Assembly: GCA_903929455.1 (NCBI GenBank)
Contig: CAIYVA010000110.1
Location: forward strand, 14,651-78,650
Direction of reading: 5' to 3'
Origin: an uncultured Pseudomonadota bacterium
Lineage (GTDB): Bacteria > Pseudomonadota > Gammaproteobacteria > Steroidobacterales > Steroidobacteraceae
DNA length: 64,000 nucleotides
This document shows positions 39,055 to 46,236 of this stretch, piece after piece; the first letter of the stretch is position 1; every line of letters begins with the position of its first letter. Both the position numbers and the translations under genes were made by a program. Below the pieces are notes generated by a model that saw only the letters and a list, made by a program, of their open reading frames with translations, was not told the origin of the DNA and ran no database searches.

Positions 39055-40236
39055 CTAGCCCTGCGGCACACGCGGATCATACAAACGAGTATGTTCGAGA
39101 ATTGCGTAACGATCGGTCATCCCTGCGATGTAGTCCGCAACTGCACGGGCTCGCCCTGCAAGCCCCGCTTTAGTTTCAAGCATCCCAGCAGTCTGCCGGT
39201 GTTCATCGGGCAACAGCCGAACGTCTTGGGAATAGGCAGAAAATAGCTCACGAACGACGCGCTGCGACTTATTGGTCATGCGCACGACTCGATAATTCTG
39301 ATACACGTGCTCGCGTAAAAATTTCTTCAGCTGTTGATGTTCTTGCAGCACTCGTTCGCTAAAAGATACAAGCCTCTGTCCGGCACTACGCACCGCGTCT
39401 ACGTCGGAAATTTTGTATTCATGCAGACGTGCGCGCGTCGTATCGATGAGGTCGGTGGCTACCTCATTAATCATGCGTCGTATGACTTCATGTATAAGCT
39501 TACGAATGGTGATGTCTGGATAGCGCTGAATTACAGCCTCATAATGACGGGCAAACAACGCTACCTCGCACAGTTGCGCGGGAGTGATCACGCCGGCGCG
39601 CAAGCCGTCATCGACATCGTGATTGTTATAGGCAATTTCGTCCGCCAAGTTTGAGAGCTGCGCCTCTAGAGAGGGCTGCGTTCGCTTTAAGAAACGCTCG
39701 CCAAGATCACCGAGCTCAGCAGCATTTTTGGCGGAGCAGTGCTTAAGAATGCCTTCTCTCGTCTCAAAGGTGAGGTTAAGACCAGGAAAATCAGCGTAGC
39801 GCTCTTCCAGTTCATCGACCGTGCGAAGCGACTGCAAGTTGTGCTCAAAGCCACCGAAATCACGCATGCACTCATTTAAGGCATCTTGACCTGCGTGACC
39901 AAAGGGTGTGTGGCCTAAGTCATGAGCCAAACAGATGGCCTCACAGAGAGGCTCGTTGAGGCCTAAGGCCACACTGACTGAACGCGCGATCTGAGCAACC
40001 TCGAGAGAATGCGTTAAGCGCGTTCGATACAGGTCGCCCTCATGGTTGACGAAAACCTGTGTTTTATAGACCAAGCGTCGGAACGCGGTCGAATGAACGA
40101 TACGATCGCGATCACGGTGGTACTCGCCTCGATAACCAGCTGGCGCGGGCTCCTCATAGCGGCGACCGCGACTACTCGCCTCGAGACTCGCATACGACGC
40201 TAGACCTTGGTCAGGAGGGGGTGTTGTGTAATCCAT
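39055..40236 (-). CDS. dgt: dGTP triphosphohydrolase-like HD-domain protein
   Basis: [20 protein letters not shown] and [10 protein letters not shown] motifs. The start overlaps the aroB stop (TAATG). Confidence 0.9.
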
Positions 40237-41469: not shown

Positions 41470-42063
41470 TTACGGCGCTTGGGTAGCGCCCACGGCCGCA
41501 CTTGATGAGGCCTCCGCGCCTGGCAGGTGAGCAACAATATGTTTGGCCACATCCAGCACTCGTCGACGATCCGTGGACACGCAGCAGTGTGCGAGGCCTA
41601 AGTAAATCGGCTCCCTGACCGTCATGAGCTCAGCCAGACGAGTCGCCGGATCGGCATGCAGCAACAGTGGCCGATGGCGCCCTCGCTGGGTCCGTTTGAC
41701 CTGCTCCGTGATCGACGCCTGCAGGTAAACCACGGTGCCGCGCTCACGTAGCCAAGCCTGATTCTCAGGAAGCAAAATAGCACCGCCGCCTGTCGCTAGT
41801 ACAACACCGTCCAATAAGGTCAGATCGGCTAAAGCCTCGCGCTCACGCTCACGAAAGCCCGCCTCGCCCTCCTTCTCGAAGATAAACGGTATATCTACCC
41901 CAGTGCGCCGCTCTATCTCTGCATCACTGTCAATAAAGCGCAGCTTCAATAGACGCGCCAAGGCTTTGCCCACCGCTGACTTTCCAGATCCCATGGGACC
42001 AATTAAGAAAATACGCAAAGGCTTAGCCGGCGTTAACTTAGTCGATGGCAATGCATCCTCCAT
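41470..42063 (-). CDS. aroK: shikimate kinase
   Basis: IFLIGPMGSGKS Walker A and ATGGG. The start is placed at ATG 42063 (Met21 of the ORF). Confidence 0.9.
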   Translation of the reverse strand: MEDALPSTKLTPAKPLRIFLIGPMGSGKSAVGKALARLLKLRFIDSDAEIERRTGVDIPFIFEKEGEAGFREREREALADLTLLDGVVLATGGGAILLPENQAWLRERGTVVYLQASITEQVKRTQRGRHRPLLLHADPATRLAELMTVREPIYLGLAHCCVSTDRRRVLDVAKHIVAHLPGAEASSSAAVGATQAP

Positions 42064-42145
42064 ACGGCACAGTGTAAACGCTGGCACCAGAAACGAAAAC
42101 GGCCACCCCAAGGGTGGCCGCACATAAGGACCCGAGCGTCCTCAC

Positions 42146-43984
42146 TTAATTTGGATTGCTACAGTCATTCACAACACCATAGGGGCTCACCAATCCTGGT
42201 GGGTTAACGGACTCGCTAGCAAAATCAGCCGCGGCACCAGGCAACACGAAAGTCGATGTGGTGGTGCTTTCTGTACCTGTCACAGACGCGGTTGCAATCA
42301 ACTCCACCCCTACGTAGCCCGCGTGGTCTTTCGGATAGGTCACCGTCACCAGCAACTCACCCGCTCCATCAGTGACGCCCAAAGCAGATGCTAGCGAAGC
42401 GACATTGCCAGGCTCCAATACTCCATCGCCATTGAAGTCCTCGCTCTGCTGCAACACACCATCTAAATTCACGTCCTCGTTCAAACACGTCGCAGCCACA
42501 TTTGTTACCCAACTCGTGGTGAATGTCCGACTGCCCTTCACATAGAATACCGGCAGCACCTCAACGCTCACTGGCGCGTTCGGTACGGCTGCGCCTTGCG
42601 CATCCAGTGCCAGTACGGCAAAGGTCAAGGCGTAGGTCGCCACATCCGGCGAGGCCACTGTATTGCCTGTGCCCAATGATAAAAAGACTGTCTGTCCGCC
42701 CACCGTTAGTGCGGCTGCGTTCCTAACTAACGTGTTCGGGATATACGCTGTCACAACAACACCGCCTGCGGCGCTTGTGGTCGCGCCCGCTGTATACACA
42801 ACGGTCGCCTCGCCCTGCGCATTGGTGGTTGCTACCGACGCGCCTAACGTGCCGCCGGTGACGTCAACCAGCGAAAAATTCACGGCGCGATTGGCGACCA
42901 AATTGTTGTTCGCATCGCGTAAACGCGCGGTGATCGTACTTTGGCCGTGAGTCACAATAGCAGCCGGGCTTGCTTGCACTGCAATCTGAGTCGGCGTGGT
43001 GGCAACGAACGTAAGCGTGGTCTGCGCCGATACGCCTCCGGCACTCGCTGTCACTAACGAGCCACCAGCGGCCGTTGAATTCAATGTAATGGTGGCGACG
43101 CCAAGTGAATTTGTCACTGCAGTAGCGGAACTCACCGTGCCGCGCGTTGCCGAAAACGTAATCGTCTGTCCACTCACCGGCGAGCCACCATTTAAGGAAG
43201 TCACTGTGATGGTTACGGGCGACCCAATGTTCACGCTGGCAGCAGAAGCCTGTATCGAGAAGTTTGTGCTGATAACAGTCAACGACGCCTGTGCCGTTGT
43301 ACCAAGTGCGCTTAGCGTCAACGTATCAACACCCGAAATGGCGGCAGTTACCGTGAAGGTCGCTCTACCATCAATATCAGTCGTTACTGCTGTGGGCGCT
43401 GTGTTACCAAGCGCACTCGCAATCGATACCGGCCCTGCAATCCCTTGCCCGTTTGAGTCTACAAACCGAACTGAATAAGTCGCCGATGAGCCAAGCGATA
43501 GCTGATTGAGCCCTGTGACGGAAAGCGCCGTACCCACCACATCGACAGTCACAGTGCCCGTGCCAGCACCCGAACCTGCGGTCGCGGTGACCGTGATCCG
43601 CCGATCAGCCAAATCCGTACCTGAGTTCAAAGTTGCCGCGACGACACCGCTCGTATTGGTCACGCATGGAATTGCGTTACAACTAATGACGCCACTGCTG
43701 GCTACGAACACCACGGTCGCACCCGATACCGCGTTGTTGTTTTTATCAACAACGACGGCGGAAATCGTCGCCGATATGGGCGCCGTCACCGTTGTGTTAG
43801 CGGGCGTTCCAGCGACATTACTATTGGATGCAATCTGCGGTGCGGACGTCGCGAGACTAATCGCTGCCGCCGTCGGCGTGGTCGTAGGCACCGTAGCGCT
43901 ACCAGTGAGCGTGTTGCCGCCACCGCAGGCTACCAGGCCTAGCGCTAACAGCGCACCTACGGCCAGATATTTTAAACTCTTCAT
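42146..43984 (-). CDS. lipoprotein with tandem bacterial Ig-like (Big_1/invasin-type) repeats and a C-terminal domain carrying DxDxDG-like motifs
   Basis: Signal peptide with lipobox LVAC (MKSLKYLAVGALLALGLVACGG). There are at least four about 90-aa repeats of the type V.F..S.G......T.T...G.A...L. The C-terminal NEDVNLDGVL / DFNGDGVLE are calcium-binding-like. Confidence 0.7.
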   Translation of the reverse strand: MKSLKYLAVGALLALGLVACGGGNTLTGSATVPTTTPTAAAISLATSAPQIASNSNVAGTPANTTVTAPISATISAVVVDKNNNAVSGATVVFVASSGVISCNAIPCVTNTSGVVAATLNSGTDLADRRITVTATAGSGAGTGTVTVDVVGTALSVTGLNQLSLGSSATYSVRFVDSNGQGIAGPVSIASALGNTAPTAVTTDIDGRATFTVTAAISGVDTLTLSALGTTAQASLTVISTNFSIQASAASVNIGSPVTITVTSLNGGSPVSGQTITFSATRGTVSSATAVTNSLGVATITLNSTAAGGSLVTASAGGVSAQTTLTFVATTPTQIAVQASPAAIVTHGQSTITARLRDANNNLVANRAVNFSLVDVTGGTLGASVATTNAQGEATVVYTAGATTSAAGGVVVTAYIPNTLVRNAAALTVGGQTVFLSLGTGNTVASPDVATYALTFAVLALDAQGAAVPNAPVSVEVLPVFYVKGSRTFTTSWVTNVAATCLNEDVNLDGVLQQSEDFNGDGVLEPGNVASLASALGVTDGAGELLVTVTYPKDHAGYVGVELIATASVTGTESTTTSTFVLPGAAADFASESVNPPGLVSPYGVVNDCSNPN

Positions 43985-44031
43985 GTCATTGACTCCGAAG
44001 CTATGTGCACGCCGCGTCCGAGACCCTACCC

Positions 44032-46215
44032 CTACAGAGTTGCGCCTTCGCGCAAAATCTTCGGTGTTACAAAGATAAGTAACTCGTCTTTGTTAAGCGT
44101 TTTTGTTTGGTTGTTAAACAGATGTCCAAGCAATGGGATGTCACCCAATAAAGGCACCTTCTTTTCTTGCGTGCTCTTGGTGGTGGCTAAGATGCCACCC
44201 AACACGACAGTCTGCCCATCGTTGACCAACACCTGGGTCGAGATAGAGCGCGTATCAATCGCCGGCACTTGGCCACCTGTCGCACTGCTAACTAACTGAC
44301 CGACGGTATCGTTGGATACTGTCAGATCCAGAATCACTCGGTTATCCGGTGTGATTTGTGGTTTAACTTTTAGTGACAGCACAGCTTTCTTAAACTGCGT
44401 CGTGGTTGCACCCGAGGAAGCAGACTCCTGATAAGGAATTTCCTGACCTTGCTCAATTGTTGCTTCTTTTTGGTTTGATGTGATGACACGAGGTGCCGAC
44501 ACAATCTCTGCACGATCTTCCGCTTGCGCTGCGGATAGCTCGAGATCAACCAGAAAGTTGCCGCTCAGGATAGAGGCGCCGATGCTACCCGCGGCGTTCG
44601 CCACGGGCATATTCACATTGTAGCGACTCGTATAGTTTGAGCTACTAGTGGGTATCTGCACGGGAAATGCTGAGCCGTGATTATTTAGGTTAGACAAACC
44701 AGAGTTAATAATGCCGTTCGCGGCGTTCGCGCTACCGGATACCGCAAGCAACCCGTTGCTACCGTTCGCCTTCACGGACGTTGTCCCTAGCACTGCGCCT
44801 AGCTGCCGATTGAAGTCGTCATTAACAATCACAATGCGCGATTCGATCAACACCTGGCGCACCGGAATATCGAGTGTGGCAACCAGGCGGCGTATATCTG
44901 TCAAGCGATCTGCAGTCTCATGCAACAGAAGGGTGTTCGTACGCTCGTCTAGGGCGACGCTGCCGCGTGGCGACAGCAAGGTGTTCCCGGTTTTTCCCTT
45001 AATCAGAGCGGCGAGGTCAGACGCTTTTGCGTAATTGACTTGGAGGTACTCAGAGCGCAATGGCGAGAGATCCTCGACATCTTTGCTCGCTTGCAAGTCG
45101 GCTTTCTCACGGCTAGCAAGCTCCGCAGCAGGCCCAACCAAGATCACGTTGTCACGGCGACGCATTGCTAGGCCTTTGGTGCGCATCACGATGTCGAGCG
45201 CTTGGTCCCACGGCACATTCTGCAGTCGCAACGTCACACTGCCTGTGACGCTGTCACTCACGACGATGTTTTGCCCGCTGGTATCAGCCAAAAGCTGAAG
45301 AACAGCACGCACGTCAATATCTTGGAAATTAAGCGTCAGGCGTTCGCCAACGTAATCTTTCTTCTCGTCGGCCACTACAGCTTTCGCTGCCTTGGCGCGC
45401 ACTTCGATGACGTATGAATTATCTGTTTGATACGCCATGTGCTCAAACTCGCCTGATGCGGTTATCACGAGCCGTGGGTTACCATCTGCGCGTGTCACAT
45501 CGACCGTGCTGACGGGTGTGGCGAAGTCGCTGACTTCATATCGTTTTAGTTGCTCGGCGGCGACTTTGGTGCCAAGAAAATCAACCATGACCTGGTGACC
45601 CTGCTGACTGACGTTCACCGCGGTCTTAGAGTCGCTTAGCGCAACAATCACGCGCGCAGTGCCATCGGCAGCGCGCCTAAAGTCGACACCCGTCAGGCTG
45701 TGCGTACCTGAGGCACTACCGGCGGATGCCACCGACGGTGTATCGACACGATCGGCTACCTGTTGGGTTAGTGCGGTCGCTGTGCGGCTTTGTCCTACGG
45801 TAATAGTGATGGTGTTGTTGTCAACGCGCGTCTCGTACGGTGCTAGCGCGTCCATGTTCATAACCAGGCGGGTACGCCCTTTCGCTTCCCCAGCAACTAC
45901 GGTGTCAATTCCTGCAGACTTGACGTCAATACGACGTTGCGTGAGTGCGAGACCCACACCAGGTAAGTCCATCGAAATCCTAGCGGGCTTGTCGATGGTA
46001 AACATCAGCGGTTCAGGTGCTGGACCACTTAAGTGCAGCGTGAGCTGTACTTGGCTAGTCGAGAGTGTCGATACGTCGACGGACTCGAGGTTGATGGCTG
46101 CCTGCGCGAAGCTTAGCTTCGGTAGGCAAATAAGCAGCAGAGCCAGTGCAGCCAACCCAAAGCCTAAGCTTGGTCGACGCAGTGCAACGGTGACAGGCCC
46201 TTTAATGGCGTTCAT
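44032..46215 (-). CDS. pilQ: type IV pilus secretin PilQ
   Basis: Two AMIN-like N-terminal repeats, then a secretin C-terminal domain (VLVNDGQTVVLGGI...VPLLGDIPLLGHLF). ATG 46215 is preferred over TTG 46236. Confidence 0.95.
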   Translation of the reverse strand: MNAIKGPVTVALRRPSLGFGLAALALLLICLPKLSFAQAAINLESVDVSTLSTSQVQLTLHLSGPAPEPLMFTIDKPARISMDLPGVGLALTQRRIDVKSAGIDTVVAGEAKGRTRLVMNMDALAPYETRVDNNTITITVGQSRTATALTQQVADRVDTPSVASAGSASGTHSLTGVDFRRAADGTARVIVALSDSKTAVNVSQQGHQVMVDFLGTKVAAEQLKRYEVSDFATPVSTVDVTRADGNPRLVITASGEFEHMAYQTDNSYVIEVRAKAAKAVVADEKKDYVGERLTLNFQDIDVRAVLQLLADTSGQNIVVSDSVTGSVTLRLQNVPWDQALDIVMRTKGLAMRRRDNVILVGPAAELASREKADLQASKDVEDLSPLRSEYLQVNYAKASDLAALIKGKTGNTLLSPRGSVALDERTNTLLLHETADRLTDIRRLVATLDIPVRQVLIESRIVIVNDDFNRQLGAVLGTTSVKANGSNGLLAVSGSANAANGIINSGLSNLNNHGSAFPVQIPTSSSNYTSRYNVNMPVANAAGSIGASILSGNFLVDLELSAAQAEDRAEIVSAPRVITSNQKEATIEQGQEIPYQESASSGATTTQFKKAVLSLKVKPQITPDNRVILDLTVSNDTVGQLVSSATGGQVPAIDTRSISTQVLVNDGQTVVLGGILATTKSTQEKKVPLLGDIPLLGHLFNNQTKTLNKDELLIFVTPKILREGATL

Positions 46216-46236
46216 TCCCAGTACTCCAGGTAACAA

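Follow-up and report, generated by a model that had tools for sequence, protein, structure and literature searches.

Few envelope gene clusters have been studied as closely as the type IV pilus operons, and to our knowledge the gene order pilMNOPQ-aroK is treated as invariant. In the 64,000 nucleotide stretch of DNA analyzed here (the window), an additional gene, referred to as gene X, stands between the secretin gene pilQ and aroK, and a full-text literature search turned up no account of a gene like it downstream of pilQ. The locus raises the question of whether protein X is part of the pilus machine, an adhesin-like accessory to it, or a passenger that merely uses the transcription of the operon.

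The transcription unit that contains gene X

The gene order on the minus strand of the window is pilM-pilN-pilO-pilP-pilQ-X-aroK-aroB-dGTPase-pyrF-hemE, with ponA divergent. The first-pass annotation had placed a gene of 612 amino acids at 42146..43984, between pilQ and aroK and on their strand, and the open reading frame list and translation confirm this, with both neighbors also on the minus strand. The type IV pilus secretin gene pilQ (44032..46236, minus strand, 734 amino acids; TIGR02515 IV_pilus_PilQ, 4.4e-153) lies directly upstream, and the shikimate kinase gene aroK (41470..42063, minus strand; NF003456, 7.5e-54) follows. The distances reported earlier also hold: the pilQ-X spacer (43985..44031, minus strand) is 47 nt long, and the approximately 80 nt from the X stop codon to aroK come to 82 nt if aroK begins at its likeliest start, the ATG at 42063. 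A longer aroK beginning with GTG at 42123 appears unlikely from the sequence, since it would overlap the terminator hairpin described below. Gene X is a real gene as judged by homology: of the candidates that were scored, 850 are homologous to it at E ≤ 1e-3. Its GC content (0.566) and GC3 (0.577) match those of the neighboring genes and give no sign of a recent horizontal gain in the present genome.

The 47 nt spacer holds a GGAG ribosome-binding site (43993-43996), 8 nt ahead of the ATG of gene X, and a scan of it found neither a terminator-like nor a promoter-like site; a promoter consensus scan of the region yielded fewer sites than shuffled sequences did, and none within the spacer, and is therefore neutral as to a promoter of X's own. 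By contrast, a hairpin resembling an intrinsic terminator and followed by a T-run (42089..42121, minus strand; scan and sequence) begins 25 nt past the X stop codon. It consists of GCGGCCACCC-TTG-GGGTGGCCGT, with 10 pairs of which 8 are G-C, and then TTTTCGTTTCT. A terminator-like site was present within 200 nt of the X stop codon in 59 of 77 homologous loci, and in about 45 of those 59 it took the form of a GC hairpin with a T-run 20-40 nt past the stop. In genomes that lack gene X at this place, a hairpin directly follows pilQ in four of six relatives and in two Nevskiales genomes, and five of these six hairpins carry a T-run. Gene X thus has the features of a member of the pilMNOPQ unit (same strand, short gap, a terminator after it and none before), and because the strong hairpin and T-run come after X and not after pilQ, the sequence indicates that X is the last gene of a pilMNOPQ-X transcription unit. 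The earlier description of X as simply wedged between pilQ and aroK therefore gives way to membership in the pil unit. Transcription as part of this unit would mean that protein X is always produced together with the alignment and secretin proteins of the pilus.

Domain architecture of protein X

The first 20 residues (43925..43984, minus strand) form, in translation, a signal peptide with the lipobox LVAC, as had been noted before; Cys20 is predicted to be lipidated and is followed by Gly at position +2. The N-terminus, MKSLKYLAVGALLALGLVAC-GGG, has a hydrophobic signal peptide that leads into a lipobox of the pattern [LVI][ASTVI][GAS]C, without Asp at +2. A lipobox was found in 77 of 79 homologues, where the +2 residue was G, S or N and never Asp, which points to sorting to the outer membrane; protein X would then be an extracytoplasmic lipoprotein of that membrane. 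Outer-membrane lipoproteins of the Proteobacteria mostly face the periplasm, an observation that speaks against an adhesin, and any route of export of X to the surface is conjectural. A Gly/Thr/Pro-rich tether (residues 21-39; 43868..43924, minus strand) was modeled as disordered, with AF2 pLDDT below 50 over residues 1-35.

Residues 40-428 (42701..43867, minus strand) make up four Big_1-type Ig-like domains (D1, 40-150; D2, 151-238; D3, 239-328; D4, 329-428), recognized by Pfam, by matches to intimin and by AF2. The first-pass annotation had counted at least four Big_1/invasin-like repeats in a composition rich in T, A, V, S and G. Both points were borne out: Pfam Big_1 (PF02369) matched in four stretches (E value 2.1e-30; 105.1 bits, the gathering cut-off being 34.9), and the protein is rich in these five residues. 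Invasin_D3 also matched in Pfam (E value 3.5e-17), the Big_1 domains matched the sequences of intimin (structures 6tpl and 1f00), and D1-D4 were modeled as all-beta with pLDDT of about 85-95. Homologues ranged from 605 to 1966 amino acids, with extra Big_1 domains added on the membrane-proximal side; the longest, of 1400-1966 amino acids, carry 9-14 or more of them. Identity per domain among orthologues was approximately 47-55%, and all five domains of X are about equally conserved, which is not what one would expect if a conserved head sat on a neutral stalk, and to that extent counts against an adhesin.

The fifth, C-terminal domain (CTD; residues 429-612, 184 amino acids; 42149..42700, minus strand) is conserved. 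Its AF2 model (residues 425-612; pLDDT 93.6, pTM 0.86) is an all-beta, elaborated Ig-like sandwich with inserted loops, so that the distinct C-terminal domain described earlier does exist but is itself Ig-like. It is an unstudied domain, absent from Pfam (no family matched in a Pfam search) and without a close solved structure (the best PDB fold match was InvE, 5n40, with an E value of 1.3e-3 and TM 0.41), and it occurs in about 2500 protein clusters (2505 found with the CTD profile). Among the proteins that also carry it are giant Big_1/fn3/He_PIG multi-Ig proteins, sometimes with 2-6 copies.

Alignments place Cys500 and two tandem EF-hand-like DxNxDG loops at residues 500-527 (42404..42487, minus strand) and the partner cysteine, Cys608, at 42161-42163 (minus strand). 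The loops are inserted between strands of the sandwich, the loop region of the model being domain residues 78-110. The motifs NEDVNLDGVL and DFNGDGVLE and the Cys pair, all reported in the first-pass annotation, are present, and C500 and C608 (C76 and C184 of the domain) were invariant in 40 diverse homologues, in which columns E79, D80, G85 and N94 were at least 90% conserved. The conserved block reads C-x-N-E-D-x-N-x-N-G-I-L-D-x-G-E-D-x-N-x-N-G-x-L-D-P-G. As a pattern of sequence, the EF-hand-like DxDxDG loop (acidic or amide residues at positions 1, 3 and 5, Gly at 6, a hydrophobic residue at 8 and an acidic one at 9 or 12) occurs twice in X and is conserved, while no Pfam calcium-binding family matched X or its CTD. 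This conservation suggests that Cys500 and Cys608 form a disulfide and that the loops bind calcium, and the invariant Cys pair together with the loop motif implies an oxidizing, extracytoplasmic location.

Distribution of gene X and turnover of the slot after pilQ

Gene X directly follows pilQ in at least 72 of the 79 species-level genomes with a homologue and in all 12 of the relatives checked. This arrangement extends across the Steroidobacterales and is also found in Thioploca, Halobeggiatoa and one Leptothrix MAG, a betaproteobacterial genome whose PilQ is merely 39% identical. With X, the pilMNOPQ unit has a sixth gene throughout an entire order of Gammaproteobacteria common in soil and fresh water, and also in giant sulfur bacteria. 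In Thioploca and Halobeggiatoa, where X is about 1960 amino acids long, pilQ-X is kept without an adjacent aroK, so the linkage of X is to pilQ and not to aroK. The slot is empty in six relatives and in the Nevskiales genomes, where aroK comes directly after pilQ; this supports the view that X was added to an ancestral pilQ-aroK junction. The idea of a lineage-specific insertion put forward earlier consequently stands as to the insertion, but the lineage is not narrow, given Thioploca, Halobeggiatoa and the Leptothrix MAG.

Within one genus, the slot may hold an X-type gene, hold a Y-type gene or be empty. The Y-type gene encodes a second Big_1 lipoprotein, with a proximal Big_1 domain 53% identical to that of the X-type and an unrelated end region; homology between the two end regions was tried and rejected (hhalign probability 5.8%, confined to one Ig strand pair). 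In one relative (G024), a pilY1/minor-pilin cluster fills the slot. In Panacagrimonas, Nevskia and one Nevskiales MAG, homologues of X are not located near pil genes, and the same is true of both X-type and Y-type genes in Nevskiales and Cellvibrio; in the Nevskiales, the two types alternate beside an alanine dehydrogenase gene. Some close relatives have a complete pil operon and no X. The tie of X to pili is facultative, since Nevskiales homologues are unlinked and close relatives with the full operon do without X. A common location away from pil genes in relatives had been named beforehand as one part of what would count against a pilus role, and this is partly what we see in the Nevskiales. 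The unlinked homologues and the turnover within one genus argue against a core machine part and leave room for a co-expressed accessory adhesin. The same unlinked homologues, and the close pil-positive relatives without X, are also observations that tell against an adhesin acting with pili.

Relation to known systems and possible functions

The closest likeness in architecture is to invasin/intimin and Yersinia InvE, in which, as is predicted for X, a Big_1/Invasin_D3 chain projects a disulfide-closed terminal binding domain; InvE 5n40 is the best, though weak, fold match of the end domain. X differs in having a predicted N-terminal lipid anchor instead of a beta-barrel translocator, and it has no LysM; Pfam and NCBIfam searches found no translocator barrel match in X, whose N-terminus is the 20-residue lipoprotein signal peptide. 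Intimin ends in a C-type-lectin-like domain, whereas the modeled end of X is an Ig-like sandwich with putative calcium loops. NCBIfam intimin models reached approximately 30 bits against cut-offs of 1400-2050, and X is not an intimin. Bacterial alpha-2-macroglobulin (ECAM/YfhM) is likewise a lipoprotein of MG/Ig-like domains. Weak Pfam matches to MG4 (26.3 bits) and bMG3 (below cut-off) overlap domain D3, and whole-chain Foldseek returned A2M and complement proteins at TM of about 0.2, a level explained by generic chains of Ig domains. X has no thioester domain and no bait region, is far too short, and resembles these proteins at the Ig level alone.

The pilotins PilF/PilW/Tgl, TsaP and the secretin plug proteins SlkA/SlkB (PMC13392014) are envelope proteins that act with PilQ, and X appears from its gene context to be co-transcribed with pilQ. 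Pilotins are outer-membrane lipoproteins, as X is predicted to be, but the folds of these secretin partners (TPR, LysM, small periplasmic proteins) are unrelated to X. Close relatives dispense with X, whose length, moreover, runs from 605 to 1966 amino acids. That X differs from the known pilotins, as the first-pass annotation had said, agrees with the finding that 40 of 41 relatives, irrespective of slot state, carry a separate PilW/PilF gene above the TIGR02521 cut-off, so that X is not a pilotin replacement; the gene of the present genome, also over cut-off, is G000:C125:10108-10803, and X had no TPR match in Pfam or NCBIfam. PilY1/PilC is a pilus-linked adhesin with EF-hand-like 9-residue calcium loops. 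X recalls it in the sequence pattern of its putative loops, and the pilY1 cluster of G024 occupies the same slot. X does not match the beta-propeller PF05567, the PilY1 of the genome is encoded on contig C77, and X would be lipid-anchored and, as far as can be told, not pilus-borne.

We favor the reading that X is an outer-membrane-anchored, stalked, probably Ca2+-stabilized adhesin co-expressed with type IV pili, to which we give a probability of about one half. The lipid anchor and short flexible tether would project the four Big_1 domains, each conserved among orthologues, as a rod. At its tip would stand the fifth, elaborated Ig-like domain, which would carry two EF-hand-like calcium loops and be clamped by a disulfide. 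X would most likely act as a short-range, Ca2+-stabilized adhesin or surface-contact factor alongside type IV pili: the pili would do the reaching and pulling, and the holding would fall to the stalked lipoprotein. Surface exposure and an adhesive role are suggested by the architecture, which agrees with the adhesin-like character proposed earlier, and a structural role for X in the pilus machine is improbable. Four observations make it look adhesin-like rather than machine-like: the longest homologues exceed by far the need of a periplasm-spanning part, a single genus shows X-type, Y-type and empty slots, the CTD recurs in giant Big_1/fn3/He_PIG proteins, and the pilotin and PilY1 are encoded elsewhere. 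If X cooperates with pili, it would offer a simple genetic handle on long-range pilus attachment and short-range adhesion in environmental bacteria, and a new calcium-loop Ig domain family would also be defined.

Slot turnover within one family (X-type, Y-type, pilY1/minor-pilin cluster, empty), genes of both types off pil genes in Nevskiales and Cellvibrio, their alternation beside alanine dehydrogenase and the full pil operons without X would also be expected if the space from pilQ to the terminator were a permissive landing site. The function of X would then have nothing to do with pili, and X would only borrow the transcription of the operon; it could, for example, be a protein of the surface or envelope in general, or bind polymers or particles. 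We consider this somewhat unlikely: the same junction is filled in three deeply separated lineages, one without aroK there and one a betaproteobacterial MAG, at least 72 of 79 species have X within the pil unit and ahead of its terminator, and the other occupant seen, the PilY1 cluster, is itself pilus-related. Even as a mere passenger, X would mark a recombination-prone site at which adhesin-like genes with different ends are exchanged, with the same X/Y alternation at a different locus in Nevskiales.

The remaining readings assign X to the secretin itself. Lipoproteins sorted by Lol are by default oriented toward the periplasm, and this orientation, the conserved adjacency to pilQ with predicted co-transcription and the conservation of the five domains as one unit would suit an Ig rod that runs from the inner leaflet of the outer membrane along the periplasmic domains of PilQ. 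Its end domain would bind PilQ, PilP or peptidoglycan and stabilize or gate the secretin, a role (not a fold) comparable to that of TsaP, the pilotins or the SlkA/SlkB plug proteins. Periplasmic proteins that bind secretins provide a precedent (PMC13392014). Such an accessory is nonetheless improbable, as forms of 1400-1966 amino acids with 9-14 or more Big_1 domains are too long for the periplasm, X is dispensable in close relatives, the Y-type has an unrelated end region in place of the CTD, a pilotin is present anyway, and the CTD is shared with giant multi-Ig proteins of a kind characteristic of surface adhesins. Alternatively, X may be cargo, a lipoprotein that travels to the surface by way of PilQ and the pilus machinery. 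Precedents are the lipoproteins PulA and SslE, exported by T2SS secretins and encoded next to the genes of those secretion systems, and TcpF, a secreted substrate of a type IVb pilus system. That X is tied to pilQ and not to aroK, and that a surface-suited architecture would need an export route, would fit such a role indirectly. PulA and SslE resemble X as lipoproteins encoded beside secretin-machine genes, but they are T2SS-exported enzymes or mucinases with no sequence or fold relation to X, and export of X through PilQ on this likeness is pure conjecture. With Nevskiales homologues unlinked to pilQ, and since we know of no type IVa pilus system that exports a lipoprotein, we regard the cargo reading as quite improbable. 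A broader version, in which the pilQ-linked X-type and Y-type lipoproteins are swappable surface adhesins that all reach the surface through type IVa PilQ, is a long shot; if true, PilQ would export a lipoprotein cargo encoded in the same operon as itself, and PulA/SslE export by the T2SS would have a type IVa equivalent.

Domain structure of the X protein

The gene X (42146-43984, minus strand) encodes a 612-aa protein that begins with a lipoprotein signal peptide (residues 1-20; MKSLKYLAVGALLALGLVAC, then GGG) followed by a Gly/Thr/Pro tether (residues 21-39) that is disordered in the structural model. Since Asp is absent at position +2, the Lol rule suggests that X would be sorted to the outer membrane. 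The Big_1 profile (PF02369), a check proposed in the first-pass annotation, matched in four stretches (2.1e-30), Pfam also returned Invasin_D3 (3.5e-17), and a search of the PDB with the family profile recovered intimin Ig domains (6tpl, 6.4e-18; 1f00, 4.7e-11). An AlphaFold2 model built with 30 homologues (mean pLDDT 83.6) is a row of beta-sandwiches, in which four Ig-like domains, D1 (residues 40-150), D2 (151-238), D3 (239-328) and D4 (329-428), precede a C-terminal domain (CTD, 429-612). All five domains are conserved to about the same degree, with 47-55% identity among orthologues. We regard it as firmly shown that X is an extracytoplasmic, lipobox-bearing multi-Ig protein. D1 contains an extra, lineage-specific cysteine pair (Cys102 and Cys107; ISCNAIPCV; 43667-43684), which replaces the usual 'VTQ' stretch only in this protein and its two closest homologues.

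Modeled alone with 40 diverse homologues, the CTD (pLDDT 93.6, pTM 0.86) takes the form of an Ig-like sandwich interrupted by a long insertion, and the two loop motifs picked out in the first-pass annotation, NEDVNLDGVL and DFNGDGVLE, both lie within that insertion. The family consensus of the loops is C-x-N-E-D-x-N-x-N-G-I-L-D-x-G-E-D-x-N-x-N-G-x-L-D-P-G, and two cysteines are invariant in the CTD alignments: Cys500, where the insertion begins, and Cys608, close to the C-terminus. The CTD had no match in Pfam and no close counterpart among solved structures, the best being Yersinia InvE (5n40, E value 1.3e-3, TM 0.41). A profile search with the CTD recovered 2505 clusters (50% identity), of which 1018 reach E<=1e-30. 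In these the CTD mostly forms the C-terminal end of proteins of 600-750 aa, and it occurs in two to six copies inside some proteins of 1700-7473 aa. The multi-copy giants include P0122 (3083 aa), P0123 (7473 aa), P0124, P0126 and P0127; the four scanned with Pfam (1714-3083 aa, a set without P0123) otherwise consist of Big_1, fn3 and He_PIG domains, a composition typical of large surface adhesins. The CTD is a mobile module that no Pfam family covers.

Gene order and transcription at the pil locus

The minus-strand gene order is pilM (49104-48016), pilN, pilO, pilP, pilQ (46236-44032; TIGR02515, 4.4e-153), X, aroK (ATG at 42063; NF003456, 7.5e-54), aroB, a dGTPase-like gene, pyrF and hemE, with ponA (PBP1A) divergent from pilM. 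The spacing reported in the first-pass annotation was accurate: the gap between the pilQ stop and X is 47 nt, and that between the end of X and the aroK ATG is 82 nt. A GGAG motif precedes the ATG of X by 8 nt. The base composition of X is that of the adjoining genes. The dGTPase-like (HD-domain) gene (39055-40236, minus strand) overlaps the aroB stop, and the order aroK-aroB-dGTPase-pyrF-hemE is also present in a relative (L090).

Of the terminator-like sites in the region, the strongest follows X, beginning 25 nt past its stop codon (42121-42099; GCGGCCACCC-TTG-GGGTGGCCGT, then TTTTCGTTTCT; 10 pairs, 8 of them G-C), and the same scan found no comparable site in the pilQ-X spacer. Judged from sequence, X is therefore predicted to lie within the pil transcription unit and to close it. 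Among 77 homologous loci, 59 have a terminator-like site no more than 200 nt beyond the X stop; in about 45 of the 59 it is an equivalent GC-rich hairpin and T-run 20-40 nt past the stop. Six relatives, two of the same genus, have aroK directly after pilQ; a GC-rich hairpin immediately follows pilQ in four of them and in two Nevskiales genomes, with a T-run at five of these six sites. The longest aroK ORF, starting at GTG 42123, crosses the hairpin 3' of X, so that ATG 42063 is the likelier start, and an automatic annotation that includes 42064-42123 could make aroK 20 codons too long.

Linkage to pilQ and other occupants of the pilQ-aroK interval

The X family is large: of the candidates scored, 850 match at E<=1e-3, and the few with names come from Steroidobacteraceae MAGs. 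Thirty of 41 relatives of the window's genome have a match, and the order pilQ-X-aroK was found in all 12 of their best loci. Scanning species-representative genomes gave 80 loci, the bulk of them from Steroidobacterales MAGs of lakes, mires and soils. Other loci carry a Chromatiales, Nevskiales or Salinisphaerales label, and the set also contains a Leptothrix ochracea MAG, Thioploca, Candidatus Halobeggiatoa and the isolate Panacagrimonas perspica DSM 26377.

The synteny survey suggested in the first-pass annotation upheld the association with pilQ in most loci. A CTD match is present in 79 loci, and in 72 of these X starts 36-625 nt (typically 40-95 nt) past the end of pilQ; in two more, which are alignment artefacts, the genes are neighbours as well, and a contig end truncates one further locus. 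The association failed in Panacagrimonas, Nevskia and one Nevskiales MAG, where X lies elsewhere; in the first two, pilQ was found with aroK directly after it. In one Salinisphaerales-labelled MAG, X is 4.1 kb downstream of pilQ, past aroK, aroB, the dGTPase gene and one further gene. The homologues of Thioploca (1966 aa, with 14 Big_1 stretches in Pfam) and Halobeggiatoa (1954 aa) directly follow pilQ and have no aroK after them; thus, the linkage is with pilQ rather than with aroK. The Leptothrix MAG, although its PilQ is only 39% identical to that of the window, has the arrangement pilNOPQ-X-aroK-aroB, with X overlapping the start of aroK.

Five relatives, four of the same genus, carry in the pilQ-aroK interval a second lipobox and Big_1 family of 562-1134 aa, here called Y-type (L027:2127-5528(-); L028:3877-5907(-); L030:2260-4689(-); L031:2254-4602(+); L034:2140-3825(+)). 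Y-type proteins have the same kind of signal peptide as X-type proteins, and their membrane-proximal Big_1 domain is 53% identical to that of long X-type proteins. Their distal 400-500 residues have no relationship to the CTD of X (hhalign probability 5.8%) and no match in Pfam; this part has cysteine-rich and DxNGNG-type motifs of its own, for example GEESFTDANGNGEFD. The Y-type family is also large, with members in Povalibacter, Solimonas, Sinimarinibacterium and Cellvibrio, and in the last two it lies away from pil genes. An alanine dehydrogenase gene comes right after an X-type gene in Nevskia (L114:4877-8175) and right after a Y-type gene in Sinimarinibacterium (L129:6001-10706), where a phage-type integrase gene is directly upstream. 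The two types seem to alternate after pilQ in Steroidobacterales and at a second, pil-unrelated locus in Nevskiales, and therefore behave like exchangeable versions of one functional gene. In another relative (G024) the interval spans 7.6 kb (L035:928-7736) and holds a minor-pilin-like (FimT/FimU-like) gene, a pilW-like gene and a PilY1 gene (PF05567, 3.6e-48), showing that it can host genuine pilus genes too. Within one empty interval (L039, genome G030) there is a long, nearly perfect inverted repeat (…GGGGTCAGAGAGTAATTTTTAAGTCCTTGATTTTT… with its complement) and a direct repeat of GTCGGGTAAAAATCAAGGACTTAAAA, which together look like a small repeat element or MITE.

Possible function of X

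X is firmly placed, by gene order and predicted terminator, as the terminal gene of the pil operon, and its linkage to pilQ recurs in separated lineages. We give roughly even odds (about 0.5) to X being a stalked, putatively Ca2+-stabilised outer-membrane adhesin that would be made together with type IV pili and act alongside them in attachment. EPEC has both a type IV pilus and the Big_1 adhesin intimin, a functional analogy to the pilus and X that carries no claim of homology. Five features are easier to reconcile with a displayed protein of adhesin type than with a stoichiometric machine part: length varies threefold as proximal domains are added, the distal region is exchanged, close relatives have lost the gene, unlinked copies exist, and giant multi-Ig proteins contain the CTD. 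A periplasm-facing accessory of the secretin is improbable, and we consider it rather doubtful that X is a passenger with an unrelated function. Least probable is a cargo exported through PilQ, an explanation that overlaps the adhesin reading, as such export is a possible route to the surface.

A full-text literature search turned up no account of such a gene following pilQ; among recent studies of secretin partners, the closest deals with small periplasmic plug proteins (PMC13392014). The lipoprotein signal, Big_1 domains and EF-hand-like loops are familiar parts; the novelty lies in their combination, in the end domain and in the conserved position within the pil operon. The finding, from uncultured lineages, is solid and testable, if not startling.

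Several identities were ruled out. X is not the pilotin, since a separate PilW/PilF (TIGR02521) scores over cut-off in 40 of 41 relatives whatever occupies the pilQ-aroK interval, and the window's genome has its own on contig C125. Nor is it PilY1, which this genome encodes on contig C77. An inverse autotransporter was rejected because X lacks a barrel and reaches about 30 bits with intimin models whose cut-offs are 1400 or more, and any likeness to alpha-2-macroglobulin is only at the Ig level (TM about 0.2). The window's genome has eight T2SSE-family ATPase genes over cut-off, and its pilus system therefore looks complete.
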